Assembly (NCBI RefSeq): GCF_004310665.1
Contig: NZ_SIXF01000004.1
Coordinates: forward strand, 153,742 to 177,741
From: Pedobacter kyonggii
GTDB lineage: Bacteria; Bacteroidota; Bacteroidia; Sphingobacteriales; Sphingobacteriaceae
Reading direction: 5' to 3'
DNA length: 24,000 nucleotides
Of the stretch, positions 1 through 24,000 are shown one piece after another. Both the position numbers and the translations under genes were made by a program. The first letter of the stretch is position 1, and every line of letters begins with the position of its first letter. The notes beneath the pieces are model-generated. The model searched no databases. It saw nothing but the letters and a program-made list of their open reading frames with translations, and had not been told where the DNA came from.

Positions 1-641
1 GTTGTGAGTATGATAATTATGAACCACCAAAATCTGAATTAAACGGAAGAATTCTTTTTGAGGGAAAACCAGTTGGTATTCGACAGGGCATCAGCGTATT
101 GCAACTTACCCAGCCAGGATTTGAGACCGTAACACCAATAAATGTGAATGTAAAGCAGGATGGAACATTTTCGTCGATGTTATTCGATGGCGATTATAAA
201 TTGGTGCAGGTTGCTGGTAATGGTCCATGGGAAGCTGCTAGTACCACAATAGATGTATCTGTAAATGGCAGTACATCCATTGATGTACAGGTTAGGCCTT
301 ATTTCTCTATTAACAATGTCAGTTTTGTGGTGGAAAACAACGTGGTCAAATCTTCCTGTTTGTTGGTTAATAATGTAGCTGGTAGACAATTGGAGCGTAT
401 CTCGCTTATATTAGGAAAAACAACAATTGTTGATGATCCGACCAAACTGGTTCCCAATCCAACCGACCCTTTGAGTACCAAGGTTGGAACTGGCTTAAAT
501 TTATTGCAACCCATTTTGCTTAGCCAAAACCTGGCCGTTTCTCCGTTAACAACCACGCCATTTCTTTATGCCCGGATTGCTGTGAAAGTGGTAGGTGTGC
601 CTGAGTTACTTTATTCAAATGTATTTCCCGTAAAATCTTAG
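1..641 (+). CDS. DUF3823-like PUL-associated surface protein, 5'-truncated by the window edge (reading frame 3, stop at 639-641)
   Basis: The frame is open from base 3 and reads CEYDNYEPPKSELNGRILFEGKPVG..., resembling the post-lipobox N-terminus of DUF3823 proteins that follow SusC/SusD pairs. The 'M' at 99 in the ORF track is a TTG inside this frame. Family assignment is from memory, not from a search. Confidence 0.55.
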   Translation, partial: CEYDNYEPPKSELNGRILFEGKPVGIRQGISVLQLTQPGFETVTPINVNVKQDGTFSSMLFDGDYKLVQVAGNGPWEAASTTIDVSVNGSTSIDVQVRPYFSINNVSFVVENNVVKSSCLLVNNVAGRQLERISLILGKTTIVDDPTKLVPNPTDPLSTKVGTGLNLLQPILLSQNLAVSPLTTTPFLYARIAVKVVGVPELLYSNVFPVKS

Positions 642-658
642 TTAAAACACGATAGCCT

Positions 659-2038: not shown

Positions 2039-2039
2039 T

Positions 2040-3476: not shown

Positions 3477-3477
3477 T

Positions 3478-4839: not shown

Positions 4840-4848
4840 TCAAAAGAT

Positions 4849-6045: not shown

Positions 6046-6074
6046 AAAGTATTTTGCCATATATTATTTGAAAG

Positions 6075-7772: not shown

Positions 7773-7894
7773 TAAATAGGATTTAGCGATCTAAAACCCC
7801 ACCTGTTTGTATCTAAACTAAAAAATGCAAGCAGATGACTTTATTTGATGGTTTCCTACTGCAGTAACCCATTTAATTCTATAACAGCTTTAAA

Positions 7895-9316
7895 ATGAAA
7901 AAGTATTTAGCAGGTACACTTATTATTTTGTCAGTACTGGGCTTTTCCTTGAGAGAGTCTACGGCACAATCAAATAAAAAGCCAAATATCATCATTATTC
8001 TCGTTGATGATTTGGGTTGGGGAGATGTAGGCTATCATGGTGGAAACATCCCTACGCCAAATATTGATCGACTGGCAAAACAAGGGGTAGAACTAAATAG
8101 ATTTTATACAGCAGCTGTTTGTTCGCCAACAAGGGCTGGCTTGCTTACTGGCAGATATCCGGATCGTTTCGGATTAAGGAAAACGGTTATTCCTCCCTGG
8201 TCTGATTTTGGGGTGAGCACCGATGAGGTTTTTCTGCCAGAAATGCTTAAAGCAGCAGGTTATAAAAACAGGGCCATACTCGGAAAATGGCATCTTGGTC
8301 ATGTTTCCTTAAAATATCATCCACTAAACAGGGGCTTTACCCATTTTTATGGCCATTTAAATGGTGCTATTGATTATTTTACGCATAAGCGGGAGGGCGA
8401 ACTGGATTGGCACAATGATTTTAATTCCAGTTATGATGTCGGATATTCTACTGATCTCATTGCTGATGAGGCTATTAAAAACATCAGATCATATCACAAA
8501 GAATCTCCTTTCTTCCTTTATATTGCTTTTAATGCACCCCACGGTCCACTGCAGGCCAAAGAGGATGATTTAAAGCGTTTCGGTTACGATGCTACCAAAC
8601 CAAGTTTCCCGAATGGCGGTAAAGAAGGCGATGAGGGAAGGGGTAATACCAAGCAACAAACCTATGCGGCTATGGTCAGTAATTTAGATGCTAATATTGG
8701 GAGAATATTAAAAACCTTGAACGACCTCAAAATTGATCAGAATACCATCGTACTATTCCAAAGTGATAACGGTTATGCACCAAATGAGGCTGGTTCAAGC
8801 GGTATTTTACGCGGATCTAAGTTTACCCAATGGGAAGGTGGTGTTAGAGCTCCAGCGATTATAAGATGGCCACAAGTTTTTAAGGGTGGCTGGAAAAGCG
8901 AGCAAGTTACAGGTTTTGTCGATGTTTTTCCTACGATTTTGGCTGCTGCCGATGTTATGGAAAAACCCAAAAATCCGCTCGACGGGATCAATGTTCTTCC
9001 AGTGTTAAAACAAAAGCAATCTTTTATCAATCGTAATCTCTTTTTGGGAGATGGCGTTTTGGTAAATAGGAATTGGAAAATATTGGAAAAACTGGATCAA
9101 AATTCTGGCATGAAACTAAAATCTGATGTACTTTTTCAAATCGACAGGGATGTTAGTGAAAAGAACGATGTAAAAGACCAATACACCAGTACTTACCAAT
9201 TATTAAAAAAAGATTTAGCACCATTTAATGCGATTAAGGCCACAGCAGAAGTTGCTAACTTCGATGTGGGTAAAAAAGGATTTGTCGCCCCTAAAGAATG
9301 GAAAGTTGAAAAATGA
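7895..9316 (+). CDS. S1-family sulfatase (arylsulfatase B / GalNAc-4-sulfatase-like), secreted
   Basis: PNIIIILVDDLGWGDVGYHGG, CSPTRAGLLTGRYPDRFG, GKWHLG and QSDNG motifs. It is set apart from the preceding genes by a 122-nt gap. Confidence 0.9.
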   Translation: MKKYLAGTLIILSVLGFSLRESTAQSNKKPNIIIILVDDLGWGDVGYHGGNIPTPNIDRLAKQGVELNRFYTAAVCSPTRAGLLTGRYPDRFGLRKTVIPPWSDFGVSTDEVFLPEMLKAAGYKNRAILGKWHLGHVSLKYHPLNRGFTHFYGHLNGAIDYFTHKREGELDWHNDFNSSYDVGYSTDLIADEAIKNIRSYHKESPFFLYIAFNAPHGPLQAKEDDLKRFGYDATKPSFPNGGKEGDEGRGNTKQQTYAAMVSNLDANIGRILKTLNDLKIDQNTIVLFQSDNGYAPNEAGSSGILRGSKFTQWEGGVRAPAIIRWPQVFKGGWKSEQVTGFVDVFPTILAAADVMEKPKNPLDGINVLPVLKQKQSFINRNLFLGDGVLVNRNWKILEKLDQNSGMKLKSDVLFQIDRDVSEKNDVKDQYTSTYQLLKKDLAPFNAIKATAEVANFDVGKKGFVAPKEWKVEK

Positions 9317-10145: not shown

Positions 10146-10174
10146 TGTAAGGATTCCATTAAGCGCCCGACTAA
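10146..10174 (+). promoter_or_regulatory. Candidate ECF-type promoter, copy 1 (upstream of the alpha/beta hydrolase)
   Basis: TGTAAGGATTCCATTAAGCGCCCGACTAA. It fits TGTAAGG-N15-CGAC(T/A)AA with the same spacing as the four other copies and is preceded by a T-run. It ends 77 nt before the ATG at 10251. Confidence 0.65.
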
Positions 10175-10250: not shown

Positions 10251-11216
10251 ATGATTATGAGAACACCTTTGATGATAATATTCTTCTTGATCATCGGTTT
10301 TTGCAATATTAAAACTGTTAAAGCACAATCTACCAAATATGATTTCCCACCTCAAACAAATTATCGCTACCAGTATGTGAAAGGTTTACGCATGTTTTAT
10401 AGAGAAGCGGGAGACAAAAACAGACCGACGATTGTTCTGCTACATGGATTTCCATCATCTTCTCATACCTATAGAAATCTTATTCCAATGTTGGCAACTC
10501 AGTACCACGTTATAGCGCCCGACAACATAGGGTCAGGATTTAGTGACAGGCTTAATCCCAATAATGTGAAGTATACATTTGATACATTGGCCAACTTTAC
10601 GAACACACTACTTGACAGCATTGGAGTTAAAGACTATGTAATGTATATGCAAGATTTTGGTGCTCCTGTAGGATACAGAATGTATGCTATGAAGCCTAAG
10701 CGTATTACTCATCTTATCGTTCAAAATGCAAATGCTTATTTAGAGGGACTCACGGCTGATAGACAATTGTTCTTCAAATCCGCACATGATGATTCTTCGA
10801 AATCTAAAATTGATTTTTTGTTTGGTTTGATGTCAAAAGAAGCCATTATCAACAAGCAATATTTATTTGATATTGACTCCTCAAGGTATGATATACAATC
10901 ACCCGATGCATGGGTTCATGATTTATACTTTTTGCAGTCGGATGCTGATAAAAAAATTCAAGTGCAATTATTTCAGGACTATTACAATAATTTGCTGAGT
11001 TATCCCTATTGGCAAGAGCTGCTAAGAAATAATCAACCAAAAACTTTAATTGCATGGGGTGAAAAGGATATGAAATTTATTTCAGAAGGGGCCAAAGCAT
11101 ATTTAAGAGATCTTCCAAATGCCGAATTACACTTACTGGATGCAGGACATTTTGCTGTTGAAGAAAAAGGAAGAGAGGTTGCCATACTTATCCTGAACTT
11201 CTTGAAGAACAACTAA
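10251..11216 (+). CDS. Secreted alpha/beta-fold hydrolase of the epoxide-hydrolase/haloalkane-dehalogenase type (Asp nucleophile)
   Basis: Signal peptide ..IIGFCNIKTVKAQS. HGFP oxyanion motif (LLHGFPSSSHTYRNL). Nucleophile-elbow-like MQDFGAPVG, with Asp where Ser would sit. C-terminal catalytic His context LLDAGHFAVEE. The start could instead be the ATG at 10257. Confidence 0.85.
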   Translation: MIMRTPLMIIFFLIIGFCNIKTVKAQSTKYDFPPQTNYRYQYVKGLRMFYREAGDKNRPTIVLLHGFPSSSHTYRNLIPMLATQYHVIAPDNIGSGFSDRLNPNNVKYTFDTLANFTNTLLDSIGVKDYVMYMQDFGAPVGYRMYAMKPKRITHLIVQNANAYLEGLTADRQLFFKSAHDDSSKSKIDFLFGLMSKEAIINKQYLFDIDSSRYDIQSPDAWVHDLYFLQSDADKKIQVQLFQDYYNNLLSYPYWQELLRNNQPKTLIAWGEKDMKFISEGAKAYLRDLPNAELHLLDAGHFAVEEKGREVAILILNFLKNN

Positions 11217-11349
11217 GTAGAGACCAGCATCAATCGGGTAAACGGCTCGGTGAAAAACCTCACAGAGCGCCACTCGAGAGTTTAGCACCCACTAAAATTT
11301 TCCGATTGCAAAGCGGCGTCAATTCCTTACAAAAAAATACAAAATACTT

Positions 11350-11378
11350 TGTAAGGATTGACGGGCTGTTACGACTAA
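11350..11378 (+). promoter_or_regulatory. Candidate autoregulatory ECF-type promoter, copy 2 (upstream of the sigma/anti-sigma pair)
   Basis: TGTAAGGATTGACGGGCTGTTACGACTAA. Same motif and spacing as the other copies. It ends 65 nt before the sigma-factor ATG at 11443. Confidence 0.7.
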
Positions 11379-11442: not shown

Positions 11443-12042
11443 ATGTTACAAAAAGATCCTGAGTTTGATACTATTGACAAAAATGCCATCGACCCGCACA
11501 GTTGGGTAAACAAGTATGCCGACTATCTTTTCTCTTATGCGGTCTTCCGCATCAATGATCAGGAGCAGGCGCAGGACCTGGTGCAGGAAACTTTCCTTGC
11601 AGCACTGGAACGCCAGGAAAAGTTTGAAGGCAGGAGTTCTGAGAAAACCTGGCTAACGGCTATCTTAAAAAATAAAATCGTTGACGTTTACCGCTCCAGG
11701 TCGTCGGGACTCAGTAAAGAGATCATTCAAGCGGATATAGAAAGATCGGACGAGGATTTTTTTGACCAGAACGATGGCCATTGGAATGATCAGCACAGAC
11801 CGGCTAAGCTCGGCATAGAAACCTCCGATGCGCTGGAAAATAAAGAGTTTGAAAGAATATTGAAGGCTTGCATGGATAAGCTGCCTGCGCTCTGGCTATC
11901 AGTTTTCTCTATGAAGCATATAGATGAAGAGACCACCGAGCTGATCTGCAGTGAACTCAAGATCAGCTCATCAAATTTTTGGGTCATTATTCACAGGGCT
12001 AAAGTAAACCTAAGGTCATGCCTCCAAAAAAACTGGATTTAA
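11443..12042 (+). CDS. ECF-type RNA polymerase sigma-70 family factor
   Basis: Region 2 block DLVQETFLAALERQEKFEGRSSEKTWLTAILKNKIVDVYR. Region 4 block LPALWLSVFSMKHIDEETTELICSELKISSSNFWVIIHRAKVNLRSCL. It is 199 aa and followed 10 nt later by an anti-sigma-like ORF. Confidence 0.9.
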   Translation: MLQKDPEFDTIDKNAIDPHSWVNKYADYLFSYAVFRINDQEQAQDLVQETFLAALERQEKFEGRSSEKTWLTAILKNKIVDVYRSRSSGLSKEIIQADIERSDEDFFDQNDGHWNDQHRPAKLGIETSDALENKEFERILKACMDKLPALWLSVFSMKHIDEETTELICSELKISSSNFWVIIHRAKVNLRSCLQKNWI

Positions 12043-12052
12043 GCACGAACAG

Positions 12053-12340
12053 ATGAAAGAACTAACAGAAACAGAAATAAAAAAGATTGCATACAACTGC
12101 CGTAAGGCGACCTATTTGATAGAGAAGCAGCAAATAGGCAAAATTACGTTAAGGGAGAAACTGGAACTAAAAATCCACCTGACCGGATGTGCAATTTGTG
12201 TCACTTTCATGCGGCAGAGCGCGGTGATCAATCAAATGGCCAGGAAGCTGGTGAATGCGGATTCCAATACGCTGAAGCTGGACGAAAAATTTAAAGAGCG
12301 GATGCAAAAACGCATCAATAGCCGCCTGAACAAAAATTGA
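12053..12340 (+). CDS. Small soluble zinc-binding anti-sigma factor (ZAS, RsrA-like), no transmembrane segment
   Basis: It carries H42-x3-C46-x2-C49 (IHLTGCAIC) plus C16 exactly 25 residues upstream of the His. It is 95 aa, has no hydrophobic helix, and sits immediately downstream of the ECF sigma gene. Confidence 0.7.
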   Translation: MKELTETEIKKIAYNCRKATYLIEKQQIGKITLREKLELKIHLTGCAICVTFMRQSAVINQMARKLVNADSNTLKLDEKFKERMQKRINSRLNKN

Positions 12341-12598
12341 TCAGCAAAATAAAGATTGGCTATGGAATTTTCCCTGCGCAATAGAATACATCCATTATTT
12401 GTATTCCTGTTGATAACCATCTTGTCGTTAGTCATTTTACTGTGCTTGGCCGAATCCATTTTCATTTTTTTCATTTTGTCTTTTTCCATCTTGCCCTTTT
12501 CCTGGAACGGAGATGCCAGAACGCTAAGGGAAAGGCAGGAAACGATTAAGGCTGAAAACGGTGTTTTAAACAGAAATATATGGGACTTGAAACGCCCA

Positions 12599-12784
12599 AT
12601 GGCCAATACTATGTGGGGCTGGAAATGGGGAGCGCCATTCACCCTCAGCCAATACTGGCTTATGAAAAACGGAAAGCCTTTATTAGTCGAGCACGGCGCC
12701 CCTTTAAGGCTAATCATACCAGTAAAATATGGAATTAAGAATTTAAAAAGGATTGGAAATAGCCTGTTTAGCAATAAATTTTAA
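12599..12784 (+). pseudogene. Possible C-terminal relic of a molybdopterin-binding oxidoreductase (sulfite-oxidase/MsrP-YedY fold)
   Basis: ..LMKNGKPLLVEHGAPLRLIIPVKYGIKNLKRIG.. resembles the conserved ..NG.PL....G.P.RLVVP..YG.K..K.I block at the C-terminal end of the Mo domain. The upstream part of the 142-aa ORF shows no Mo-domain features (no Cys ligand region). The last 42 nt overlap the convergent gene on the - strand. Confidence 0.4.
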
Positions 12785-13408
12785 ATCTTTTATTTCTAAA
12801 ACATTTTTGTGATATCCAAGTGTCAGCGTTCGAATTAAAGCACTTACAATTTTATCATATGTTAAGGTTTGATTAGGAAAAACAAAAGGATAAATAAGCT
12901 TAAGTCCTTTATAAATCCACCTTACATTTTTTTGTGTTTTCAAAGGAGTAATAAACCCTGGACGAAAGCTGTAAGCCACTTTAAAATGTAGCTTATTTAA
13001 TGCGTTCTCTGTTTTGCCTTTAATCCTTGCCCACATTATTTTTCCATTTTCCGAACTATCTGCATATACTCCAGATAAGTAAAAGAAAACCATATCTGGA
13101 TTGAAACCAGCAAGTTGCTTTGCAAACATTATAGTAGTATAAAAAGTGATTTGGTTGTATTTATCCTCGTTCATACCAAAGGAACTAGTGCCCGCGCAAA
13201 AGAAACAGCCATCATAGCCAGTTAGTTGGTTTTTCTGGGCGGCCATATCTGTAAAATCTTTTACGATCAGTTCAGAGAGTTTGGGATGTTTTAATGAAGA
13301 AGCTCTTCTATTTACCATCAATACTACGGTAATATCGGGATGATCAAGAGAGGCCAGCAAAATTCCTTCCCCGATCATCCCTGTAGCTCCTGTAATTATT
13401 ATTTTCAT
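12743..13408 (-). CDS. NAD(P)H-binding Rossmann protein (atypical SDR/epimerase-like)
   Basis: N-terminal MKIIITGATGMIGEGIL (GxxGxxG). It is 221 aa and the last gene of the TetR operon. Confidence 0.8.
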   Translation of the reverse strand: MKIIITGATGMIGEGILLASLDHPDITVVLMVNRRASSLKHPKLSELIVKDFTDMAAQKNQLTGYDGCFFCAGTSSFGMNEDKYNQITFYTTIMFAKQLAGFNPDMVFFYLSGVYADSSENGKIMWARIKGKTENALNKLHFKVAYSFRPGFITPLKTQKNVRWIYKGLKLIYPFVFPNQTLTYDKIVSALIRTLTLGYHKNVLEIKDLKFIAKQAISNPF

Positions 13409-13422
13409 TATTTCATTACATA

Positions 13423-13986
13423 TCAGCGTTCAATCATTTTCCAAAACATAGCGAATGTATCTAGAATGATGCTGTGCTGTTCTTTTTTAGTGAATTTGTT
13501 TGATGAAAGGTATTGATTTACACCAAACACCTGATTACTGATCAAGGCATACAATAAGTTTACATCAATATCGGCGATCTTTTGCTCCTCTACAGCCGAA
13601 CTGAAAAGCTGTAATACGGGGGTTATCTGCGCTGAAATTTTATCAGCTCCGACTTTTTTCAGATAGGGGGAATTGGAGAACTGCGCCAGAAACAAAAACT
13701 CACTGGGATTACGGAGCGACCATTTAAGCGACTCTTCATAATAGCTCTGGATAATCGCTTTTGTTGATTTAACTTCCGCCAATGCAGCATTTATGCTTTC
13801 TGCCGCATGCCCCTTCAATTTTAAGTAAAGTGAAACGATCAAGTCATCTTTAGTCGGGAAAAAATAGAACAAAGTCCCTGTTGCTATCCCTGCCTCTTTT
13901 GCAATTTTACTTGTCGGTGTATCATTAAATCCTTGTGAAACAAACAATTCTAATGCTGTTTCAAGTAACTTTTCCCTTTTATCCAT
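13423..13986 (-). CDS. TetR/AcrR-family transcriptional regulator
   Basis: N-terminal HTH LETALELFVSQGFNDTPTSKIAKEAGIATGTLFYFFPTKDDL. It is 187 aa. Confidence 0.92.
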   Translation of the reverse strand: MDKREKLLETALELFVSQGFNDTPTSKIAKEAGIATGTLFYFFPTKDDLIVSLYLKLKGHAAESINAALAEVKSTKAIIQSYYEESLKWSLRNPSEFLFLAQFSNSPYLKKVGADKISAQITPVLQLFSSAVEEQKIADIDVNLLYALISNQVFGVNQYLSSNKFTKKEQHSIILDTFAMFWKMIER

Positions 13987-13999
13987 AGGTTCCTGGCGA

Positions 14000-14407
14000 T
14001 TACTTTATATCATCCATCCGGCCACAGAACAATTCATTAACCATAATGGTATCCAAATATTCATAAAGCCCGCTAATTAAGCCGTCTTTAAAGGTAAGAA
14101 GCAACATCACATTGTTTACGTAAATACGGCCATCCTTTCGCGTTCCCCGAATATGAACATAAAGCGCTGCACGCTCTTCGTCTGCTGTAACAGACCGAAG
14201 CGTCATTTTCATTCCCGCCGGGAATCGTTCTGCTACGATGCCCCATAATTTTGTCTGGTTTTCTAGTGATTGATAACCTCCATACGGCCAGGATCCCTCG
14301 CCGCTCCACCAATAAACATAATCAGGCGTTTTTAATTCGGACATTTCATCGAAGTTACCAGCAACCATTGCATTGAAATACTTTTCTGCGATTTCTTTTG
14401 TTTTCAT
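14000..14407 (-). CDS. NTF2-fold / SnoaL-like protein
   Basis: 135 aa. The N-terminal KEIAEKYFNAMVAGNFDEM is typical of SnoaL-like/NTF2 family proteins. It is the first gene of the TetR operon. Confidence 0.7.
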   Translation of the reverse strand: MKTKEIAEKYFNAMVAGNFDEMSELKTPDYVYWWSGEGSWPYGGYQSLENQTKLWGIVAERFPAGMKMTLRSVTADEERAALYVHIRGTRKDGRIYVNNVMLLLTFKDGLISGLYEYLDTIMVNELFCGRMDDIK

Positions 14408-14588: not shown

Positions 14589-16271
14589 TTAAGAATTGGC
14601 CGACTTTACGTATCGCGTGTTCCGTCTGATCATATCTATGCCTTCTCGGTAGGGCATATAACTCAGCCCGCGCTCCCTGCGGTTTTGTTTACTTACCTGG
14701 TATAAGATACTCCAATGACGGATGATCTCTTTCCAGGCAAAAAATATCAAATGTTTAGGATCGTAAATATGAGCCGGCTCGCTGGCAGCACCATTTACCT
14801 CCATGATCTTGAATTGACCGGCACAGAGTTCCGGCCAGGTATGGTACTTCACATCTAAGCGACCGTAATAAAAGCCTGGGATCTGTGTGCAAACCGCGTG
14901 GACACTTTGTACCAGCTCGTCGGTCAGATGATCGCTAAGGTCAATAAATTTTGCGCCGCGGCTATGATTGCCATAAGGTGCCGGCAGGGCAATTTCGCCT
15001 GCGGGAATGATACGTTGCAGTGCCTGGTAATCGTATTTGGCTAATGCTGGCAGTTGCAGCAGATATCTCGGCTCTTTGGCCAACAGCTCCTGTAAAGTGG
15101 AGCATCCGTCGCCGGTTACACTCATTAGTTCCTTTCCAACGATACCAGTGATGCTTACAATATCACTGCCCGGCATTCTGTAATAAAATATCCCGGCTTC
15201 TTTAGGATAATCAATATATTCCTGCAGTAAAAAATCTACCTTACTGTTAGCTGCATAAGTCTGGAGGTCTTCCTGAGATTTTAACAATTTCACCTGCAAA
15301 CCACGTTGGCCGATATCAGGCTTGGCAATCAGTGGCAAAGCAACGTTGATGTTTGCCACCGGTGTACCAGCTTTAATCAGAATCGTCTTTGGACAATATT
15401 GCGGAATATGGGTGTAAATTTGATACTTGCTATCCATGGCGAACCCGCCATTTTTCATGCCAGGGTTAGCCGTATTAAAGAAAAAAATGGCACGTGACTT
15501 AATACTGAGCCAAAACCAATAGAACATTACAGGCGTATAGACAACATAATAAGGCCAATACTCCCAATTAAAAAGCTTTATCAAAAAAATGCGCAGATTC
15601 AACCATGAAATTTCCTTCCTAACTATATCCAACTGCTTTGCCTGTGTTGTGTTGGTTTTAAGATCCTCATATGTCATATCCACTTGGGTATAACTTACCT
15701 GGATATGTGTGATGCTTACGGTGCTAACAGGGCCCGTTAAGCATTCCGACCGATGAAAATCAATTACAGCTGCACGGTCCTTTTTATTCGCCGATTTAAA
15801 ACGGCTGAATTTTTCCCTTTGGTTTATTTCATCGTAAAGCGTTGCAGAGCTCCATATTTGCGGCTGTTGCGGATCAAGCTGAACCGAGTATTTATATGCT
15901 CCATCCCAGCGGCATTCACAAACCATCCCTTTTGTGCAAAGCACCAGGGTAAAAGGCTCAATATCGTGCAGATCAACGCTTTCAAAATACCGTTCCGGGT
16001 GAGTGTTTGCAATGACTTCCAGCAGTAGTAAGCCGCGGCTTTTCTTATAAAACGGCTTTTGGATGTGTTTGGCAAAAGCGCCGTTCAATAGTACCGCCAC
16101 GTCGCCATTTGTCTTAGCAGCGATCCAGCTACCGCTTTTATCGGGGTCTTTGGGATAAAGCAGGTTGCCATAAGTAGCCGGGGAAATCGCCGTACCGCGA
16201 TTTTGATGCTCATCCCGGTTTGAAGTCAGATAAAAGCCTTCCTTGGCCGGTATATAAGTTACGGTGCACAT
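14589..16271 (-). CDS. Fusion protein: N-terminal NRDE/TANGO2-like domain (Cys2), two predicted TM helices, C-terminal ATP-grasp ligase domain
   Basis: It starts MCTVTYIPAKEGFYLTSNRDEHQNRG, giving the Met-Cys start plus literal NRDE motif of the NRDE/TANGO2 family, with SRG and LLNG blocks further on. The hydrophobic stretch is FNWEYWPYYVVYTPVMFYWFWLSIKSRAIFFF. The ATP-grasp signatures are PLIAKPDIGQRGLQVKLL, LLQEYIDYPKEAGIFYY, and the E-x-N Mg site in FKIMEVNGAASEPAHIYDP. Confidence 0.75.
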   Translation of the reverse strand: MCTVTYIPAKEGFYLTSNRDEHQNRGTAISPATYGNLLYPKDPDKSGSWIAAKTNGDVAVLLNGAFAKHIQKPFYKKSRGLLLLEVIANTHPERYFESVDLHDIEPFTLVLCTKGMVCECRWDGAYKYSVQLDPQQPQIWSSATLYDEINQREKFSRFKSANKKDRAAVIDFHRSECLTGPVSTVSITHIQVSYTQVDMTYEDLKTNTTQAKQLDIVRKEISWLNLRIFLIKLFNWEYWPYYVVYTPVMFYWFWLSIKSRAIFFFNTANPGMKNGGFAMDSKYQIYTHIPQYCPKTILIKAGTPVANINVALPLIAKPDIGQRGLQVKLLKSQEDLQTYAANSKVDFLLQEYIDYPKEAGIFYYRMPGSDIVSITGIVGKELMSVTGDGCSTLQELLAKEPRYLLQLPALAKYDYQALQRIIPAGEIALPAPYGNHSRGAKFIDLSDHLTDELVQSVHAVCTQIPGFYYGRLDVKYHTWPELCAGQFKIMEVNGAASEPAHIYDPKHLIFFAWKEIIRHWSILYQVSKQNRRERGLSYMPYREGIDMIRRNTRYVKSANS

Positions 16272-16759
16272 CCCTGCCTGTATTTGAGCGTGGATGCCGC
16301 GATGCCAAATCCGGCCGGTATCTCTATTGCTGAGATGGCACCAATGCCTATTCTGATCAGTGCCATATGATGTACGGTATGCTCCAGGTTGTAGATAAGT
16401 TCCCGGTAGTAATTGGTTTGTATTCGGATTGATTGAGATTCCTCAGCATCATAGTTTACCACCAGCACGAGTTTCCGGTCGGGTTTCCCTAAACTACAGA
16501 TAATTTCCCGTAGACATTGCTGCGCTACCTCTTTATCGTTTTCTACGGCGTGGTTTCTTTCGCGGCGGTCATAATCAACCTCCCCGATCGCATAACCCTT
16601 ATTGAGTTCCAAATAAAACTCCAGTATATGACGGCCATGCTGACCTATGGTTGACCCGGATAAGATGGTCAGCGGATGTGTAAATTCGGTATTGGTCAGC
16701 CCGCCGATAATACCGTGTAGCTGTTCTAGCAAATTGGTTATAGGTTCTTTAAGCGGCAT
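16259..16759 (-). CDS. DinB/DinB_2-superfamily-like four-helix-bundle protein (putative metal-dependent, possibly thiol-dependent, enzyme)
   Basis: His-rich motifs sit at DinB-like positions: GQHGRHILEFY in the N-terminal third and LEHTVHHMALI (H-x3-H) near the C-terminus. It is 166 aa. Its stop overlaps the downstream ATG by 13 nt. Confidence 0.5.
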   Translation of the reverse strand: MPLKEPITNLLEQLHGIIGGLTNTEFTHPLTILSGSTIGQHGRHILEFYLELNKGYAIGEVDYDRRERNHAVENDKEVAQQCLREIICSLGKPDRKLVLVVNYDAEESQSIRIQTNYYRELIYNLEHTVHHMALIRIGIGAISAIEIPAGFGIAASTLKYRQGCAP

Positions 16760-16763
16760 AGGA

Positions 16764-17165
16764 TCAGCGATTGGTAAATGGTAGATAGTTGAACAATTGT
16801 TTTTTTAAGAGCGGCACTAATGCCATGCAGCTGATTAACGTCACTAAAGCCAAAATGAAAAGTTTACCACCATCGTTCTGTACATTGATGCCTAATTGTG
16901 TCAGGTGAAAAAAGATAGCCCCCACAATAATGCCTATGCCTAGCAGCGCGCCTAAAATAGTGGTACGGGGAAACAGGATCAATAGGGAGGCGATCAGTTC
17001 TAGGCAGCCGATGCCGATGCGTCCATATGGCTCCATCCCTAATTTGGTAAAGATATACACAGATTCCGGCGCGGCTGTAAACTTGAAGAAAAGGGTTTGC
17101 AGCATAATGCCGGCTGCTATCAGGCGGAGGCCCCAGGTTAGCATATCAAGGTTTTTTGTCGTCAC
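16764..17165 (-). CDS. DoxX-family integral membrane protein
   Basis: About 130 aa with four hydrophobic helices. WGLRLIAAGIML..FFKF.. and GCLELIASLLILFPRT are typical DoxX blocks. The start is either the GTG at 17165 or the ATG at 17144. Confidence 0.8.
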   Translation of the reverse strand: MTTKNLDMLTWGLRLIAAGIMLQTLFFKFTAAPESVYIFTKLGMEPYGRIGIGCLELIASLLILFPRTTILGALLGIGIIVGAIFFHLTQLGINVQNDGGKLFILALVTLISCMALVPLLKKQLFNYLPFTNR

Positions 17166-17211
17166 GATATTGAGATTTTAGTGTAAAAAGATATGTTTTT
17201 ATGTTTATTCT

Positions 17212-17667
17212 CTAATTTTGAGTGAACCTGGTCCAACTTATATCAGCTTTGGTTTTCAGCCTGCTCTCGTCTTTATCCCAGGATTTTTTGGTATTGTTAA
17301 GGAATTTGTTGTAAAAGAGGTAAAGCTTGCCACTTACGAGCTTAAAAGTCTCCGGGTCAACAGCTACTTTGGTGCCGCTGGCTCCCATGGCATAGGCACA
17401 CCAACCACCATATTGCGGTAAATATTTAGCGGTGTTGGCCTTAAACAGACTGCGGTGCTGGTTGCTGACAAAACGATAAGTCACGCCATCATGCACCAAC
17501 GTAATTTCTTTTTTCCCTTCGACCGCTTTTTGCATCGTAAAATACGCTACCGGGTCGTAACCTGCCAACGCAAGGCCCGTATCATCCAGGTTAAGTTGTT
17601 TTTTTTGAGCCCGTGCTGAGTTCAGGATCAAGGCTGTAAATACGATAAGCAATAGGTATTTATACAT
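17212..17667 (-). CDS. Secreted YHS-domain protein (TRASH/YHS metal-binding-type fold; Cys form)
   Basis: Signal peptide MYKYLLLIVFTALILNSARAQ. LAGYDPVAYF...GVTYRFVS..HRSLF..N..KYLPQYGGWCAYAM...GKLYLFYN matches the YHS-domain family layout. The ATG at 17667 is preferred over the TTG at 17709 in the ORF track. Confidence 0.8.
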   Translation of the reverse strand: MYKYLLLIVFTALILNSARAQKKQLNLDDTGLALAGYDPVAYFTMQKAVEGKKEITLVHDGVTYRFVSNQHRSLFKANTAKYLPQYGGWCAYAMGASGTKVAVDPETFKLVSGKLYLFYNKFLNNTKKSWDKDESRLKTKADISWTRFTQN

Positions 17668-17689
17668 AGTCTTCCGAGTGTTTACCAGC

Positions 17690-17718
17690 TTTGTCGCAGC
17701 CGGGGGCAAAACCTTACA
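17690..17718 (-). promoter_or_regulatory. Candidate ECF-type promoter, copy 3 (drives the YHS-DoxX-DinB-NRDE/ATP-grasp operon)
   Basis: The - strand reads TGTAAGGTTTTGCCCCCGGCTGCGACAAA, with the same motif and spacing. It ends 22 nt before the ATG at 17667. Confidence 0.65.
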
Positions 17719-17729
17719 ATATTTTTTTT

Positions 17730-17758
17730 TGTAAGGAAATCAGCAGGTTGCCGACAAA
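17730..17758 (+). promoter_or_regulatory. Candidate ECF-type promoter, copy 4 (drives the DM13/beta-barrel operon), back-to-back with copy 3
   Basis: TGTAAGGAAATCAGCAGGTTGCCGACAAA. It ends 25 nt before the ATG at 17784. The two -35 boxes form the inverted repeat CCTTACAAtattttttTTGTAAGG. Confidence 0.65.
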
Positions 17759-17783: not shown

Positions 17784-18209
17784 ATGAAAAAAATCATTTA
17801 TTTCAGCACCATCATCGCACTTATGGCCAGCTGCAAAAAAGAAAGCACTCCGACCGCAGTGCTCAATGAAAAGGTGGACATGATGATGTCCAAGCCTGAA
17901 ACCGACAGTAGCGGATTTATTAACGGCCCATATGGTTCAGTAAGGGGCACAGCCCGTATATATATAACCAACGGCAAATATCAACTGGCACTGGAAAATT
18001 TTAGCAGCAGCAATGGACCCGACCTTAAAGTGTATATCAGTAAGGAGCAGCGGCCGGTCAATTTTGTGAATTTGGGTTCGCTAAAATCTACAAAAGGGAA
18101 TCAACTATATGATATCCCGGGTAATGTCAAAGTTCAGGATTATGCTTATGCACTGATCTATTGCCAGCAATACAGTCACTTATTCGGTTACACTCAATTT
18201 ACCTATTAA
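17784..18209 (+). CDS. DM13-domain lipoprotein
   Basis: Lipobox ..IIALMASC. GTARIYITNGKYQLALENFSSSNGPDLKVYIS....LGSLKSTKGNQLYDIP...DYAYALIYCQQYSHLFG matches the DM13 pattern (fixed GPDL..Y, Lk...G.q.Y.iP, and late Cys). Confidence 0.72.
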   Translation: MKKIIYFSTIIALMASCKKESTPTAVLNEKVDMMMSKPETDSSGFINGPYGSVRGTARIYITNGKYQLALENFSSSNGPDLKVYISKEQRPVNFVNLGSLKSTKGNQLYDIPGNVKVQDYAYALIYCQQYSHLFGYTQFTY

Positions 18210-18210: not shown

Positions 18211-19125
18211 ATGAAAAATATATATTTCTCTTGTATAGCCCTGCTTTGCACAACTTATACTTTTGGTCAGGGCTGCAGCGACGCAGGTTTCTGTAGCCTT
18301 GGCGTGCTCAAAAACAATGTGGCTGATTCAGCCAGGCACACCTTAAGTTTCGGCCTGAATTACGGCGTCGGCTACGAGCAGACCAACATTACTAATGCTT
18401 ATATAGAGTATGGAAGTAAACTGAGTGAACGTTTGTCCTTCCGAACTAAACTGACTGCCAATTATGCGACGGGGTTTTTAGGCAGCGCCTTTGACATAGG
18501 CGATATTTATGGTACGCTTAATTACGCCCTGAGAACTAAATCAGCCAGTACGATTAATATAATTGGCGGCGTAAAGGTGCCACTTACTGCCGGCAACCAT
18601 AAAAACAAAGATGGCAAGCCCTTACCGCTGGATTACCAAGCCAGTATCGGTACCTATGATGCCATAGGTGGTATTAATTACATCGTCAACCAAAGCTGGG
18701 AGTTTGATGCCGGAATACAGGTACCGGTTATACAGGTGAATAAAAACACCTTCTTTCCCGACGAACACAACGATTTCCGCGCAAACGAATTCGCACCTAC
18801 AAATAACTTTAAACGAAAAAGTGATGTCCTGGGCCGCATTGGTTACTATATTCAACTGCCGGCATCAGCTATTGTCTTAAAGCCAAGCTTGCTAGGTATT
18901 TATCACTTAGGCAGAGATACCTACGAAGACCGTTTTGGACAGCGCAACATCATCGAAGGCTCAGACGGTTTTACGCTGAACGGCAGCATCGTGGGCACTA
19001 AAAGATTTAAAAACGGCAATAGCCTGGAACTGCTTTTTGCAACTCCTTTCATCGTGCGTAAAGTGAGACCTGACGGACTTACCCGCAAAGGTGTCATAAA
19101 CGTCCAGTACACGATCTCGCTGTAG
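18211..19125 (+). CDS. Putative outer-membrane beta-barrel protein (MetA/phenol-degradation-type transporter-like), unknown function
   Basis: It has a signal peptide followed by the GCSDAGFCS motif. Alternating hydrophobic strands run throughout, and PLPLDYQASIGTYD is similar to the conserved loop of that barrel family. It starts 1 nt after the DM13 stop. Family call is from memory only. Confidence 0.45.
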   Translation: MKNIYFSCIALLCTTYTFGQGCSDAGFCSLGVLKNNVADSARHTLSFGLNYGVGYEQTNITNAYIEYGSKLSERLSFRTKLTANYATGFLGSAFDIGDIYGTLNYALRTKSASTINIIGGVKVPLTAGNHKNKDGKPLPLDYQASIGTYDAIGGINYIVNQSWEFDAGIQVPVIQVNKNTFFPDEHNDFRANEFAPTNNFKRKSDVLGRIGYYIQLPASAIVLKPSLLGIYHLGRDTYEDRFGQRNIIEGSDGFTLNGSIVGTKRFKNGNSLELLFATPFIVRKVRPDGLTRKGVINVQYTISL

Positions 19126-19269: not shown

Positions 19270-19298
19270 TGTAAGGATATGGCGGCCGTTACGACTAA
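19270..19298 (+). promoter_or_regulatory. Candidate ECF-type promoter, copy 5 (drives msrB and the DUF417 gene)
   Basis: TGTAAGGATATGGCGGCCGTTACGACTAA. It shares GTTACGACTAA with the sigma-gene copy and ends only 6 nt before the msrB ATG at 19305. Confidence 0.7.
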
Positions 19299-19304: not shown

Positions 19305-19811
19305 ATGAGAAGGATAAATATATTCGTATTTCCGCTTTTATTCGCAACACTGACCGCTTGTAGTCAGGGCGACGTTAAAAGCACAAAAGTGCCACATGCG
19401 CCAACTGTCGGATCCTTTCCAGCTGCTAAGCCTGACTGTTACTGGAAGAAAATATTATCGCCTGAAGCTTATGATATCATGGTCGGGAAGGGAACCGAAA
19501 GGCCTTTTAAGAACCCTTATCACGATAACCATAGGAAAGGGATCTATGTTAGTGCTGCAACTGGAAAGCCTTTGTTCGCATCTTCGGCGAAGTTCGATTC
19601 GGGTACAGGTTGGCCCAGCTTTTTTGAACCGATCGATGAAAAAGCGATCATGATCGTTAAAGATACTTCATTTGGAACGGTGCGTGACGAGGTGATCGAG
19701 CGTAGCACCGGTTTGCATTTGGGACACGTTTTTGACGATGGTCCGGCGCCGACCGGAAAACGCTATTGTATGAATTTCTACGCTTTGAAATTCATTCCAT
19801 CCAGACAATAA
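19305..19811 (+). CDS. msrB: Peptide-methionine (R)-S-oxide reductase MsrB, lipoprotein/exported form
   Basis: Lipobox LLFATLTACSQG. SelR-domain motifs KFDSGTGWPSFFEP, GLHLGHVFDDGP.PTGKRYCMN (catalytic Cys). Both structural-zinc CxxC pairs are absent (YVSAATGKPLF in place of the first). Confidence 0.92.
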   Translation: MRRINIFVFPLLFATLTACSQGDVKSTKVPHAPTVGSFPAAKPDCYWKKILSPEAYDIMVGKGTERPFKNPYHDNHRKGIYVSAATGKPLFASSAKFDSGTGWPSFFEPIDEKAIMIVKDTSFGTVRDEVIERSTGLHLGHVFDDGPAPTGKRYCMNFYALKFIPSRQ

Positions 19812-19857: not shown

Positions 19858-20292
19858 ATGAACATCAAAAAAACAGGATACGCCATCGGCGTTATCGGAA
19901 CGATCATCGTTCTATTATGGATAGGCATATTGAAATTTACGCCAACTGAAGCTGCAGCTATCAAACCCTACGTCGAGCATAGCTTTTTAATGGGCTGGAT
20001 GTACCAGATCGGAAGTGTGCAACAGGTTTCCAATTTTGTGGGAATCTTTGAACTTATAACCGCTATACTTCTTATCGCCTCGTTTTTCAACAGGCGGATG
20101 GGATTGATCGGGGGCTACCTGGGGGTGCTTATTTTCCTGACCACGCTTACCTTTATTTTCACGACACCCGGCATCTGGAAAGAGATGGACGGTTTACCCG
20201 TAACTGATTTTTTTGTTGTTAAGGACATTGCGTTCCTGGCTATTGTTCTCCAAGTGATCGGAATGCATCGAAAAGATGCCGATGCTGCATAA
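19858..20292 (+). CDS. DUF417-family (YkgB/RclC-like, DoxX-related) membrane protein
   Basis: 144 aa with four helices. IGILKFTPTEAAAIKPYVEHSFLMGWMY and VGIFELITAILLI resemble the DUF417 signature. It lies 46 nt after msrB with no motif or hairpin in between. Confidence 0.7.
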   Translation: MNIKKTGYAIGVIGTIIVLLWIGILKFTPTEAAAIKPYVEHSFLMGWMYQIGSVQQVSNFVGIFELITAILLIASFFNRRMGLIGGYLGVLIFLTTLTFIFTTPGIWKEMDGLPVTDFFVVKDIAFLAIVLQVIGMHRKDADAA

Positions 20293-21974: not shown

Positions 21975-22427
21975 CTACATTTTTTTTAAAGCCTTTTTAC
22001 CGAAAGCAATCAGTTGTTTGGCATCCAGGTAACCTATTGAACGATGCAGTACTTTTCCATCATAGTCAAGAATCAAAAGTGTAGGATATTCTTGTACTTC
22101 CCATTTTGCAGCTAAATTAGATCCTTCCCCTTTTTCCATATCAACAGCAAGATTAACAAAGTTTTGATTGAAATAATCAGCCGTCTCTCTGTCTTTAAAT
22201 GTTGTTTTTTTTAACTGCTTGCATGGACCGCACCAGGTTGTATAAGCATCGACAAAAATGTATTTATGTTCGGCTTTTGCTTTTTTTAATGCGGTTGAAT
22301 AGGCATTTTCGATAAATTTTATCGGTAATCTTTCTGTTGTTGAATCGTATGTTTTATCAACTGGCGAGAATGAACTCAGGGATAAAAGGATTGTAAATAA
22401 AAGTAATGGATATTTTAAATTTTTCAT
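21975..22427 (-). CDS. Secreted thioredoxin-family protein
   Basis: Signal peptide MKNLKYPLLLFTILLSLSSFS. The active site is WCGPC (TTWCGPCKQL). It lies 19 nt downstream of the DsbD-like gene. Confidence 0.9.
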   Translation of the reverse strand: MKNLKYPLLLFTILLSLSSFSPVDKTYDSTTERLPIKFIENAYSTALKKAKAEHKYIFVDAYTTWCGPCKQLKKTTFKDRETADYFNQNFVNLAVDMEKGEGSNLAAKWEVQEYPTLLILDYDGKVLHRSIGYLDAKQLIAFGKKALKKM

Positions 22428-22446: not shown

Positions 22447-24000
22447 TTACATGTTTTTAAATGCGGCCACTCCCTTGTCTAAAAATGTTACATATTTTGA
22501 AATATCAAGGTCGAAGGCCTGCGGGGCGGTCAACTGTTTCCCCGAACCGTTAATGATAACATAGTATGGTTGTGAATTAGTACCAAAGGTAGCAGCCTGG
22601 TAATCACCCCATTTCTGTCCTATCGTCTTTATTTTCTTTCCGTTGAATTTGGAAAGATATTTTTCATTTTCTGCAAGTTCGCTTTTGTCATCTACATAGA
22701 GAGATACAAGGATATAATCCTGCTTTAAGCGTTCGAGGACCTTTGGATCAGACCATACACTAGCTTCCATTTTACGGCAGTTGGTACAGCTCCACCCGGT
22801 GAAATCTAACAGGATTGGTTTATTTAGTTTTTTTGATTGCATAATCGCTTCCTCGTAATCATAAAAAGCATCCAAGCCGTATGGGGTATGGAAAAGAGAT
22901 GCATATTTCTTTTTGGTTGTTATTTCTGACTTCTCTGGGATTGTAGACCTTGTTAAATCAAATTCTTGTGAAGTGATAGGCGGCAACCATGCGCTGATCG
23001 ACTTCAGCGAGGCTCCGAAAACTCCTGGTATCATGTAAAACGTAAAACCAAAAACCAGCATGCTAACAAATAGGCGTGGCAGTGTAAGGGTTTTTGTTTC
23101 CGAATCATGAGAAAGCCTGATTTTTCCTGCAAGGTAAAAGCCTAGGAAGGCAAATATGGTTATCCATATAATTAGAAAAACATCCCTATTCAAAATCCCC
23201 CAGTGATAAGCCAGATCAACATTTGACAGATACTTAAAAGCCAGCGCGAATTCAAGAAAACCCAGAGACACTTTAACAGAATTCAACCACCCACCGGATT
23301 TAGGAAGCTCTTTTAACCATGAGGGGAAAATAGCAAACAAAGTAAAGGGAATTGCTAATGCTAAAGAGAATCCAAGCATACCCATTGCTGGCCCGTAATA
23401 CGTTCCTTTAGATACGGCATCGACTAGCAAAGTACCGATAATTGGCCCTGTACAGGAGAAAGACACCAGTGCGAGGGTAAAGGCCATAAAAAACAACCCC
23501 ACCATACCGCCTTTGTTGGACTTTTCATCCATCTTGTTAACCAGTACAGAAGGAAGGGTAATTTCGAAGGCCCCTAAAAAGGAAAGCGCAAAAATGATTA
23601 GAACAGCAAAAAAAATAAGATTGAACGTAGCGCTGCTCGCCGCTTCGTTTAACGCGGACGACCCGAAAAAAAATGTGATCAGCAATCCTAAACCCACATA
23701 AATGGTAATGATGAAAGTACCGTATAGAAAAGCCTTTTGTATTCCTTTGCGCCTTGATACTTCCTGTTTGGTAAAAAAGGAAATTGTTAGCGGTATCATC
23801 GGATAAATACAAGGCATAAAGAAAGCGGCCAGACCGCCGAAAAAACCTGCAATCAGGATTCCAAAGTATGAAGAAGTGCTTTCGCCAGGCATGCCATCTG
23901 TTGTGGGTTGCTCTACCTTTGACTGAACCGCGGCATTTTTACTGCCGCTTTGTTTATGCTTTCCTGTATTTGCCGCCTGTGGAGCTACAGATCCTGAACC
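22447..24000 (-). CDS. DsbD/CcdA-type thiol:disulfide interchange membrane protein with C-terminal thioredoxin-like domain, 5'-truncated by the window end
   Basis: Membrane-embedded Cys motifs FFMPCIYPMIPL and LVSFSCTGPIIG. The C-terminal domain has FTGWSCTNCRKME (CxxC). The reading frame stays open from 23893 to 24000 (GSGSVAPQAANTGK...), so the true start lies beyond the window. Confidence 0.85.
   Translation of the reverse strand, partial: GSGSVAPQAANTGKHKQSGSKNAAVQSKVEQPTTDGMPGESTSSYFGILIAGFFGGLAAFFMPCIYPMIPLTISFFTKQEVSRRKGIQKAFLYGTFIITIYVGLGLLITFFFGSSALNEAASSATFNLIFFAVLIIFALSFLGAFEITLPSVLVNKMDEKSNKGGMVGLFFMAFTLALVSFSCTGPIIGTLLVDAVSKGTYYGPAMGMLGFSLALAIPFTLFAIFPSWLKELPKSGGWLNSVKVSLGFLEFALAFKYLSNVDLAYHWGILNRDVFLIIWITIFAFLGFYLAGKIRLSHDSETKTLTLPRLFVSMLVFGFTFYMIPGVFGASLKSISAWLPPITSQEFDLTRSTIPEKSEITTKKKYASLFHTPYGLDAFYDYEEAIMQSKKLNKPILLDFTGWSCTNCRKMEASVWSDPKVLERLKQDYILVSLYVDDKSELAENEKYLSKFNGKKIKTIGQKWGDYQAATFGTNSQPYYVIINGSGKQLTAPQAFDLDISKYVTFLDKGVAAFKNM

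Follow-up and report, generated by a model that had tools for sequence, protein, structure and literature searches.

The 24,000-nucleotide stretch of Pedobacter kyonggii DNA considered here (contig NZ_SIXF01000004.1, positions 153,742 to 177,741; the whole stretch is referred to below as the window) contains, at positions 14589-17667, four consecutive minus-strand genes that encode, from 5′ to 3′, a YHS-like protein, a DoxX membrane protein, a DinB-like protein and a fusion of an NRDE/TANGO2-like hydrolase domain to an ATP-grasp ligase domain. It is well supported that these genes constitute one operon, and likewise that the operon belongs to a regulon of an extracytoplasmic function (ECF) sigma factor and anti-sigma factor that is devoted largely to the cell envelope; the operon is probably an oxidative-stress module. 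The explanation that we favour, with a probability of roughly 0.45, is a composite one, in which a single operon within a sigma-controlled oxidant regulon encodes an enzyme trio that would act on a small amide-linked metabolite. What is new here is the shared promoter motif that places the operon in the sigma/anti-sigma regulon, and this common motif also offers a handle for inducing the regulon as a whole. The Bacteroidota are major soil, water and gut bacteria in which envelope defence against chlorine- and thiol-reactive oxidants has been little studied and small thiols are poorly known, and relatives of the fusion protein occur in at least 594 species-representative genomes.

Operon structure and conservation

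Gene boundaries were established from the list of open reading frames (ORFs) and the sequence itself. The YHS-like gene (151 residues; 17212-17667, ATG start) is followed after 46 nt by the DoxX gene (133 residues; 16764-17165, GTG start) and, after a further 4 nt (TGAtcctATG), by the DinB-like gene (166 residues; 16259-16759), which in turn overlaps the fusion gene (560 codons; 14589-16271) by 13 nt, all four being on the minus strand. The overlap (16259-16271, minus strand), ATGTGCACCGTAA, holds both the stop codon of the DinB-like gene and the ATG at which the fusion gene begins; its translation is C-A-P-stop in the frame of the DinB-like gene and M-C-T-V in that of the fusion gene. These spacings confirm the packing described in an earlier, sequence-only reading of the same DNA, but not the end coordinate, 17718, that it gave to the module: this lies 51 nt past the real start codon, was taken from an upstream TTG-initiated ORF, and is the 5′ end of a promoter motif (17693-17718). 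The ATG at 17667 yields an N-terminus, MYKYLL, that is common to orthologues such as that of locus L001 (one of the related loci described below), and the alternative TTG start at 17709 falls within the motif; the DoxX orthologue of L001 begins at the equivalent position, but with ATG. A scan for sigma-70 promoters and terminators found no terminator-like site or hairpin on the minus strand within the operon; the same scan, which is of a kind unsuited to Bacteroidota promoters, returned 11 promoter-like sites, each with 9 of 12 matches, against 6.7 ± 2.3 in shuffled sequences. No Rfam family matched anywhere in the window.

In a scan of one genome per species, at least 594 stretches proved to code for a relative of the fusion protein, and the best 80 of them were analysed as related loci. 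These come from Sphingobacteriia (Mucilaginibacter, Pedobacter, Daejeonella), Cytophagia (Dyadobacter), Chitinophagia (Chitinophaga, Puia, Ferruginibacter and others) and Flavobacteriia (Flavobacterium, Maribacter). Of the 80 loci, 79 contain a DinB-like gene and 70 show the same 13-nt overlap; as an identical overlap recurs in so many loci, the gene packing is not due to chance, and translational coupling, as the sequence-only reading had proposed, is a reasonable interpretation of the gene spacing. DoxX lies upstream in 56 of the 63 related loci for which 5 kb of flanking sequence was available, YHS genes are found in 61 of the 80 loci (often as two paralogues, where the window has one), and a gene for a LysE-type transporter is found in 32, usually directly after the ATP-grasp gene. 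Other recurrent neighbours are genes for ECF sigma factors (19 loci), DM13 proteins (17), alpha/beta hydrolases (13) and YceI-like proteins (11), with an outer-membrane-protein-like gene in several. That earlier reading had named failure of the four-gene neighbourhood to persist in relatives as a ground for its own rejection; the neighbourhood is strongly conserved, in four Bacteroidota classes.

The NRDE and ATP-grasp parts are fused in 35 of the 80 loci and encoded by separate, adjacent genes in the other 45, and such fusion and adjacency is classic evidence for joint action, which suggests that the two activities are linked. In some Flavobacterium and Chitinophagaceae loci the cluster is reduced to a minimal DinB-NRDE-ATP-grasp-LysE arrangement with neither YHS nor DoxX nearby. 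The existence of these minimal clusters argues that the near-invariable core of the operon is the trio of enzymes or domains that carry no signal sequence (DinB-type, TANGO2-type and ATP-grasp), to which YHS and DoxX are a frequent addition.

Several variations on this arrangement were observed. In the 45 split loci the NRDE and ATP-grasp ORFs are parted by at least one stop codon (mostly TAA) with a spacer of 0-105 nt and are always in the same frame, as in L047 (6001-6726 and 6727-7770) and also in L007, L013, L016, L049 and L070. Read-through or recoding of these stops is not claimed, given that they are mostly TAA and often multiple, and the same-frame pattern may be an artefact of ranking the loci by a single long tblastn alignment. 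Two loci, L019 (Puia) and L045 (Chitinophagaceae), have the permuted order DinB-YHS-YHS-DoxX-fusion-LysE, in which DoxX abuts the fusion gene and a sigma/anti-sigma pair lies downstream. In two others, L046 (3210-4253) and L048 (3192-4238), both from metagenome-assembled genomes of Chitinophagaceae/Bacteroidetes, the cluster includes, upstream of DoxX, an additional ATP-grasp gene that belongs to the same family and lacks an NRDE domain; certain lineages may thus carry out two ligations in succession.

A promoter motif shared with an ECF sigma factor

The window contains five perfect copies of the motif TGTAAGG-N15-CGAC, a number that no shuffled sequence reached (expected, 0.11), and each copy points to a gene start 9-79 nt away. 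The copy assigned to the operon (17693-17718, minus strand) ends 25 nt upstream of the YHS start codon, and divergent from it is a copy (17730-17755, plus strand) preceding the genes for a DM13 protein and an outer-membrane-like protein. The remaining three, also on the plus strand, precede the ECF sigma and anti-sigma genes (11350-11375), the genes for MsrB and a DUF417/RclC-like protein (19270-19295) and the gene for a secreted alpha/beta hydrolase (10146-10171). In every copy except that of MsrB a T-rich stretch stands 5′ of the −35-like box, and the −10-like box reads CGAC(T/A)AA. Since a copy lies upstream of the sigma gene itself, the sequence suggests that this gene is autoregulated.

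The exact motif is also found upstream of YHS, sigma and DM13 genes in Sphingobacteriaceae loci. When the motif was relaxed (to admit variants such as TGAAAGG...CGTA and TGTCAGG...CGAC) and counted in the regions upstream of YHS, ECF sigma, anti-sigma, DM13 and DoxX genes, 31 copies were obtained in 19 related loci, compared with about one in shuffled sequence. Across these searches, nine related loci have the motif upstream of an ECF sigma gene.

The sigma factor (11443-12042, plus strand) contains the Sigma70_r2 and r4_2 domains and scores 161 bits against TIGR02943 (cut-off 162). The gene for a 95-residue anti-sigma factor (12053-12340, plus strand) begins 11 nt past its end; the best NCBIfam match of this protein is the antisigmaE model NF052368, at 44 bits (cut-off 50). 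Four positions in the arrangement C16...H52-x3-C56-x2-C59 are invariant in 20 orthologues, so that the protein bears the signature of a zinc-binding anti-sigma (ZAS) factor, and, no hydrophobic segment having been found in it, it is predicted to be soluble.

Two further features of these promoter regions were noted. The divergent −35-like boxes of the YHS and DM13 promoters form an inverted repeat (17718-17730) of CCTTACA, an A/T-rich spacer and TGTAAGG, and a similar inverted CCTTACA is present upstream of the sigma promoter (11325-11356), where there is no divergent gene; these repeats could be the binding site of a second regulator, or a relic. In three Flavobacterium loci (L049, L075 and L078) the sequence TGTAAA(G/C)TA(G/C)C(A/C)GACA is repeated upstream of DM13 and YHS genes, and may be a lineage-specific promoter or operator.

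The YHS-like and DoxX proteins

The domains that the sequence-only reading had assigned to the four proteins (YHS-like, DoxX, DinB and NRDE/ATP-grasp) are all borne out by profile and fold matches. The YHS-like protein matches the NCBIfam family NF041384, 'YHS domain-containing (seleno)protein', at 132.2 bits (cut-off 70), and this is also the name carried by a database protein from Pedobacter kyonggii that is 100 % identical to it. Its N-terminus resembles a signal peptide (MYKYLLLIVFTALILNSARA/Q), and the protein therefore looks as though it is exported. A Pfam YHS/TRASH-type metal-binding domain would be expected to have a multi-cysteine metal site; membership of this type is not supported here, as the Pfam YHS (PF04945) score of 14 bits is below the cut-off of 30.3 and the mature protein has a single cysteine, Cys90, in the sequence GGWCA. 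The motif GG.CA is invariant in 93 homologues from the related loci, 81 of which have one cysteine. No distant YHS homologue appeared among the top 120 search matches, all of which are close Bacteroidota relatives. The selenoprotein motif of the YHS (seleno)protein family is listed as GxU in a review of prokaryotic selenoproteins (PMC13188914), and Cys90 thus sits in the motif where selenoprotein members of the family have selenocysteine. Because it occupies this position, Cys90 would be expected to take part in redox chemistry, which argues for a redox-active residue over a multi-cysteine metal site.

The DoxX protein scores 31.5 bits against Pfam DoxX_2 (cut-off 26.3) and 21.2 bits against Pfam DoxX, below the cut-off of 23.6. 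Its hydrophobic segments are those of a multi-pass integral membrane protein, and its alignment contains conserved motifs but no conserved cysteine.

These properties bear on an explanation in terms of copper or other metal homeostasis, in which the YHS protein would bind a periplasmic metal and the remainder of the operon would support detoxification. The YHS domain family is tied to copper-binding proteins, and the sequence-only reading had pointed out that YHS/TRASH domains bind metals such as copper. Bufferin gene clusters that contain DoxX protect against copper (PMC11626156, PMC12452194), and the system to which the RclC-like neighbour is related has been linked to copper and HOCl (hypochlorous acid) in Escherichia coli (PMC7527725). 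With one conserved cysteine and no evident conserved cluster of His or Met residues, and with the Pfam YHS score as low as it is, the copper interpretation of this protein is weak; moreover, Pfam scans of every window ORF of at least 90 residues not nested in a longer ORF found neither a metal pump nor a metal sensor, and MsrB, which shares the motif, points to oxidant damage. We regard metal homeostasis as very unlikely to be the function of the operon.

The DinB-like protein

Neither the DinB-like protein of the window nor its profile has a sequence match in Pfam, NCBIfam or the PDB; a database entry from Pedobacter kyonggii is 100 % identical to it. A structure model built from 28 homologues has a predicted local distance difference test (pLDDT) score of 90.7, and its nine best PDB fold matches all belong to the DinB/YfiT family (probability 0.99-1.0, template-modelling score 0.49-0.66), with 3gor, 2f22 and 3dka at the top and weaker matches lower down to the mycothiol S-transferase 8f5v and to the DinB domains of EgtB and OvsA. 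When the 28 family members were themselves scanned against Pfam, 19 matched DinB_2 (best E = 6.8e-6) and 11 matched DinB. The model thus predicts the four-helix-bundle fold of the DinB superfamily. A profile search of 1.84 billion representatives gave 667 clusters at E ≤ 1e-30, and among the best 150 of these no fusion to an extra domain was found, the proteins (115-233 residues) being DinB from end to end.

Invariant residues in the alignment include H41, R43, H44, E47, E126, H127, H130 and H131, and H127-x3-H131 appears to fit the pattern of the DinB metal site, in which a histidine on an early helix is followed by H/D-x3-H on a late one. The C-terminal Cys164 is also invariant and was considered as a functional residue, and rejected: its codons lie within the overlap, where the fusion-gene sequence ATG-TGC-ACN-GTA dictates them, and the cysteine is missing in L019 and L045, where the DinB-like and fusion genes are not adjacent, so that its invariance is no evidence of function. 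Most characterised DinB enzymes depend on a low-molecular-weight thiol. Relative to the thiol S-transferases of the DinB/YfiT family (BstA, mycothiol S-transferase), the window protein has the same predicted fold, with conserved histidines at what appear to be the expected helix positions, but a sequence identity of 8-15 %, no Pfam match of its own, and an additional beta-hairpin (residues 96-116).

The NRDE/TANGO2-ATP-grasp fusion protein

Three segments can be distinguished in the fusion protein, all encoded on the minus strand. Residues ~1-215 (15627-16271) form an NRDE/TANGO2-like cysteine N-terminal-nucleophile hydrolase domain, identified by Pfam, by its residues and by its fold; residues 224-259 (15495-15602) form an aromatic-rich, hydrophobic linker (...LFNWEYWPYYVVYTPVMFYWFWLSIK) with helices at 224-234 and 241-259; and residues ~270-560, with the stop codon (14589-15464), form an ATP-grasp ligase domain, identified by residues and fold. 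The N-terminal part scores 46.7 bits against Pfam TANGO2/NRDE (PF05742; cut-off 22.6), and in the model of the fusion protein (pLDDT 82.5) it matches the human TANGO2 structures 8sv7 and 9bwa with E = 6e-10. Cys2 and the residues of the NRDE motif are conserved throughout the alignment, Asn18 with few exceptions and Cys2, Arg19, Asp20 and Glu21 with none; in the crystal study of human TANGO2 their counterparts are treated as the catalytic residues of a proposed cysteine N-terminal-nucleophile hydrolase (PMC13044924). More than 40 ATP-grasp structures match the C-terminal part at E < 1e-5, the closest folds being the ATP-grasp domain of cyanophycin synthetase, the bifunctional glutathione synthetase 3ln7 and D-Ala-D-Ala ligases (E 5e-8 to 1e-5); profile matches are weak and of the RimK/LysX/CofF type (Pfam RimK, 16.8 bits against a threshold of 21), and the invariant residues include K317, D473, E491 and N493. 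From their residues both halves look catalytically competent, the one to break or transfer amide bonds and the other to make them. The linker, which in split-gene relatives is the N-terminus of the ATP-grasp protein, may attach the fusion protein to the membrane.

The TANGO2 fold and the linker could also be accommodated by repair of membrane lipids or acyl carriers, whereby the hydrolase would cleave damaged N-acyl amides or molecules of the acyl-coenzyme A (acyl-CoA) or pantetheine type and the ATP-grasp domain would re-form the amide, with the secreted hydrolase, YceI and DoxX handling lipid or quinone species. Among characterised proteins, those nearest to the TANGO2 fold hydrolyse acyl amides (bile-salt hydrolase, acid ceramidase, NAAA), human TANGO2 has been reported to bind CoA and acyl-CoA (PMC13044924), genes for lipid-binding YceI-like proteins and alpha/beta hydrolases recur near the operon (11 and 13 loci, respectively), and the linker between the domains is rich in aromatic residues and hydrophobic. 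Its hydrophobicity is weak, however, and the sequence gives no indication of lipid binding; LysE-family transporters are known to carry amino-acid-type substrates, and the dependence of most DinB enzymes on thiols likewise tells against a lipid substrate. On balance we consider lipid or acyl-carrier repair unlikely.

A further function that has been attached to the family is heme handling. HtpA of Shewanella, a bacterial TANGO2 homologue, is reported to traffic heme (PMC10470608), and were the NRDE domain of the window to act in the same way it might feed heme to envelope redox proteins such as the protein with DM13, a domain for which electron transfer is the annotated role. Against this, the invariance of Cys2 and the NRDE motif speaks for catalysis, a crystal study found heme binding by human TANGO2 to be nonspecific (PMC13044924), and neither fusion to an ATP-grasp domain nor coupling to DinB has an obvious role in heme transfer, so that this explanation is a very remote prospect. 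The window domain does have the fold, N-terminal cysteine and NRDE motif of human TANGO2 and HtpA, and differs from both in being fused to, or encoded beside, an ATP-grasp ligase and in overlapping a DinB gene. No description of an association of TANGO2 with an ATP-grasp ligase and a DinB gene was found in the literature searched. The operon ties a member of the TANGO2 family genetically to two defined partners, a ligase and a DinB enzyme, and a tractable bacterial system with partner enzymes could open the question of the TANGO2 substrate, human TANGO2 being mutated in TANGO2 deficiency disorder.

Proposed function of the operon

In the mechanism that we favour, the neighbouring ECF sigma factor and its small soluble anti-sigma factor would govern a regulon of five promoters, and the operon would be transcribed from that at 17693-17718. 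The regulon would answer oxidants that damage thiols or the envelope (HOCl, disulfide stress, electrophiles); its inducer is probably an oxidant reactive towards thiols and methionine. Its other members would be envelope proteins, namely a lipoprotein MsrB, the RclC-like protein, a DM13 lipoprotein with an outer-membrane protein, and a secreted alpha/beta hydrolase. Within the trio, the DinB-type part would be a metalloenzyme with conserved histidines, the TANGO2-type hydrolase would use its N-terminal cysteine as a nucleophile to break or transfer amide bonds, and the ATP-grasp ligase would make amide bonds via an acyl-phosphate; together they may produce or turn over a small amide-linked metabolite, most likely a thiol, an amino-acid conjugate or an adduct of one, which the LysE-type exporter, encoded next door in many species, could pass outward. 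The exported, single-cysteine YHS protein and DoxX might then constitute a periplasmic and membrane redox arm that uses or complements the chemistry of the trio. In amidotransferases an N-terminal cysteine hydrolase domain frees an amine for an ATP-dependent synthetase, and the hydrolase of the operon might similarly deliver a nucleophile to the ligase.

Four considerations point to a single amide-linked small molecule as the substrate of the trio: the fusion joins a ligase to a hydrolase or transferase acting on the same type of bond; the nearest ATP-grasp folds are ligases of small molecules or peptides; a LysE-type exporter is often the next gene; and most characterised DinB enzymes use a low-molecular-weight thiol. 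Several other observations weigh against the proposal. The motif was seen in only 19 of the 80 related loci and is absent or different in those of Chitinophaga, Dyadobacter and Flavobacterium, so that regulation of this kind is not universal, and it is on the motif that the assignment of the putative operon promoter depends. There is no LysE gene in the window, the Kyte-Doolittle hydrophobicity of the linker by which the fusion protein may reach the membrane is weak, and the substrate of the trio could be a protein or a lipid rather than a soluble metabolite. No match to a known thiol-biosynthesis family (glutathione, bacillithiol, mycothiol) was obtained with any of the four proteins, the sole link to thiol biosynthesis being the likeness of the ATP-grasp fold to that of the bifunctional glutathione synthetase 3ln7.

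The low-molecular-weight-thiol interpretation, which the sequence-only reading had put forward, is accordingly plausible but unproven. In its specific form, that the ligase builds a thiol which the DinB enzyme uses, it is doubtful, and we would put in the same rather doubtful category the broader idea of a stress-induced Bacteroidota pathway in which the trio builds, recycles or repairs a low-molecular-weight thiol or thiol cofactor, whether new or of the pantetheine/CoA type, for delivery to the envelope via LysE, DoxX and YHS. Were a thiol pathway of this kind to prove correct, the TANGO2 family would, for the first time, have defined enzymatic partners.

Other genes of the window

The remaining genes with the shared motif all lie on the plus strand. 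That for the DM13-domain lipoprotein (17784-18209; DM13, 57.6 bits) is followed by that for a protein resembling an outer-membrane beta-barrel (18211-19125; OMP_b-brl, weak); the mature N-terminus of the latter, GCSDAGFCS, presents a pair of cysteines after the signal peptide, and in loci of Mucilaginibacter, Chitinophaga and Flavobacterium its orthologues are found together with DM13 and YHS genes. MsrB, a methionine-R-sulfoxide reductase (19305-19811; SelR, 145 bits), has a lipoprotein-type signal sequence, and the DUF417/RclC-like membrane protein (19858-20292) scores 118 bits against DUF417 and 68 bits, below the equivalog cut-off, against the RclC model. The secreted alpha/beta hydrolase (10251-11216) has a signal peptide and is haloalkane-dehalogenase-like, below the cut-off. 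The motif is missing from two nearby minus-strand genes, one (22447-23892) for a DsbD-like membrane protein that includes a thioredoxin domain and the other (21975-22427) for a thioredoxin-like protein; their products could supply electrons to the periplasmic MsrB.

A 142-codon ORF that follows the anti-sigma gene (12356-12784, plus strand) matches only the C-terminal part of Oxidored_molyb (profile positions 126-156 of 169), and looks like the remnant of a gene for a periplasmic methionine sulfoxide reductase of the MsrP/YedY type. Genes for SnoaL, TetR and NAD-epimerase proteins (12743-14407) were considered as members of the operon and rejected, the SnoaL and epimerase genes having no match in the 80 loci and the TetR gene a single weak one, in L019. 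At the start of the window (99-9316, plus strand) are five sulfatase genes, a glycoside-hydrolase-like gene and a DUF3823 gene, which look like a cluster for utilisation of sulfated polysaccharides and unrelated to the operon.

Comparison with known systems

The combination of YHS, DoxX, DinB and NRDE/ATP-grasp genes was not found described in the literature searched, and the comparisons that can be made are with systems sharing part of this architecture. Mycothiol-linked genes are among the targets of sigmaR in Streptomyces and, unlike the case for sigmaR-RsrA, neither mycothiol genes nor other known thiol-biosynthesis genes were matched at the window locus. In other respects the analogy with this redox-responsive pair, which the sequence-only reading had invoked, is strengthened by the shared ECF-type motif and by the C...HxxxCxxC arrangement of the anti-sigma factor: both systems have a soluble anti-sigma factor with these residues, apparent autoregulation of the sigma gene, and a methionine sulfoxide reductase among the targets (PMC7907618), whilst they differ in phylum and in promoter motif, and most targets of the window regulon are envelope proteins. 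DoxX itself has been tied to thiol homeostasis and oxidant defence through the DoxX-SseA-SodA membrane complex of Mycobacterium tuberculosis (as cited in PMC7907618); the DoxX of the window is a distant relative without a conserved cysteine, and there is no SseA or SodA partner in the window.

Closer parallels are found in the Proteobacteria. In Haemophilus influenzae, RpoE2 and the small cytoplasmic anti-sigma factor HrsE answer HOCl and control periplasmic MsrAB together with an operon that encodes a DoxX-like, one periplasmic and two cytoplasmic proteins, and the sigmaE system of Neisseria is similar (PMC7907618). The window regulon has in common with both an ECF sigma factor with a small cytoplasmic anti-sigma factor, a methionine sulfoxide reductase and a DoxX operon, and the likeness to Neisseria sigmaE extends to the anti-sigma factor, whose best, albeit below cut-off, NCBIfam match is the antisigmaE model. 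The cargo is different: the proteobacterial DoxX operon encodes DUF2282, DUF692 (MNIO) and DUF2063 proteins, that of the window YHS, DinB-like and TANGO2-like/ATP-grasp proteins. The response to HOCl is described for the proteobacterial systems and would be a prediction for the window regulon.

The H. influenzae DoxX operon corresponds to a bufferin gene cluster. Such clusters combine a cysteine-containing precursor that has a signal peptide with an MNIO iron enzyme, DUF2063 and DoxX, often together with sigma/anti-sigma genes (PMC12452194), and the window operon likewise has a signal-peptide cysteine protein, DoxX, cytoplasmic enzymes and a link to sigma/anti-sigma genes. This parallel architecture, of an exported cysteine protein with DoxX and cytoplasmic enzymes under an ECF sigma factor, together with the presence of a bufferin-type DoxX operon in the RpoE2 regulon (PMC7907618), raises the possibility that the trio modifies the YHS protein, for example at its invariant cysteine, before export, with DoxX as a membrane partner. 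The ATP-grasp domain has weak profile matches to RimK and TTL, families that include protein-modifying members. The exported protein of the window is, though, a folded YHS-like domain with one cysteine, and the enzyme set is wholly different from that of bufferin clusters, as no operon protein matched the MNIO (DUF692), DUF2063 or DUF2282 families in Pfam and NCBIfam scans and only DoxX is held in common. In addition, several loci have the trio beside LysE with no YHS or DoxX gene within 6 kb, and the nearest ATP-grasp folds are those of small-molecule and peptide ligases; modification of the YHS protein is, in our view, distinctly unlikely.

Action of the trio on a small amide-linked metabolite, within an oxidant regulon, thus remains the explanation that we prefer. 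By analogy, this Bacteroidota regulon appears to follow the same logic as the stress regulons known from Neisseria and Haemophilus, and to carry a different cargo, comprising YHS, DinB and NRDE/ATP-grasp proteins.

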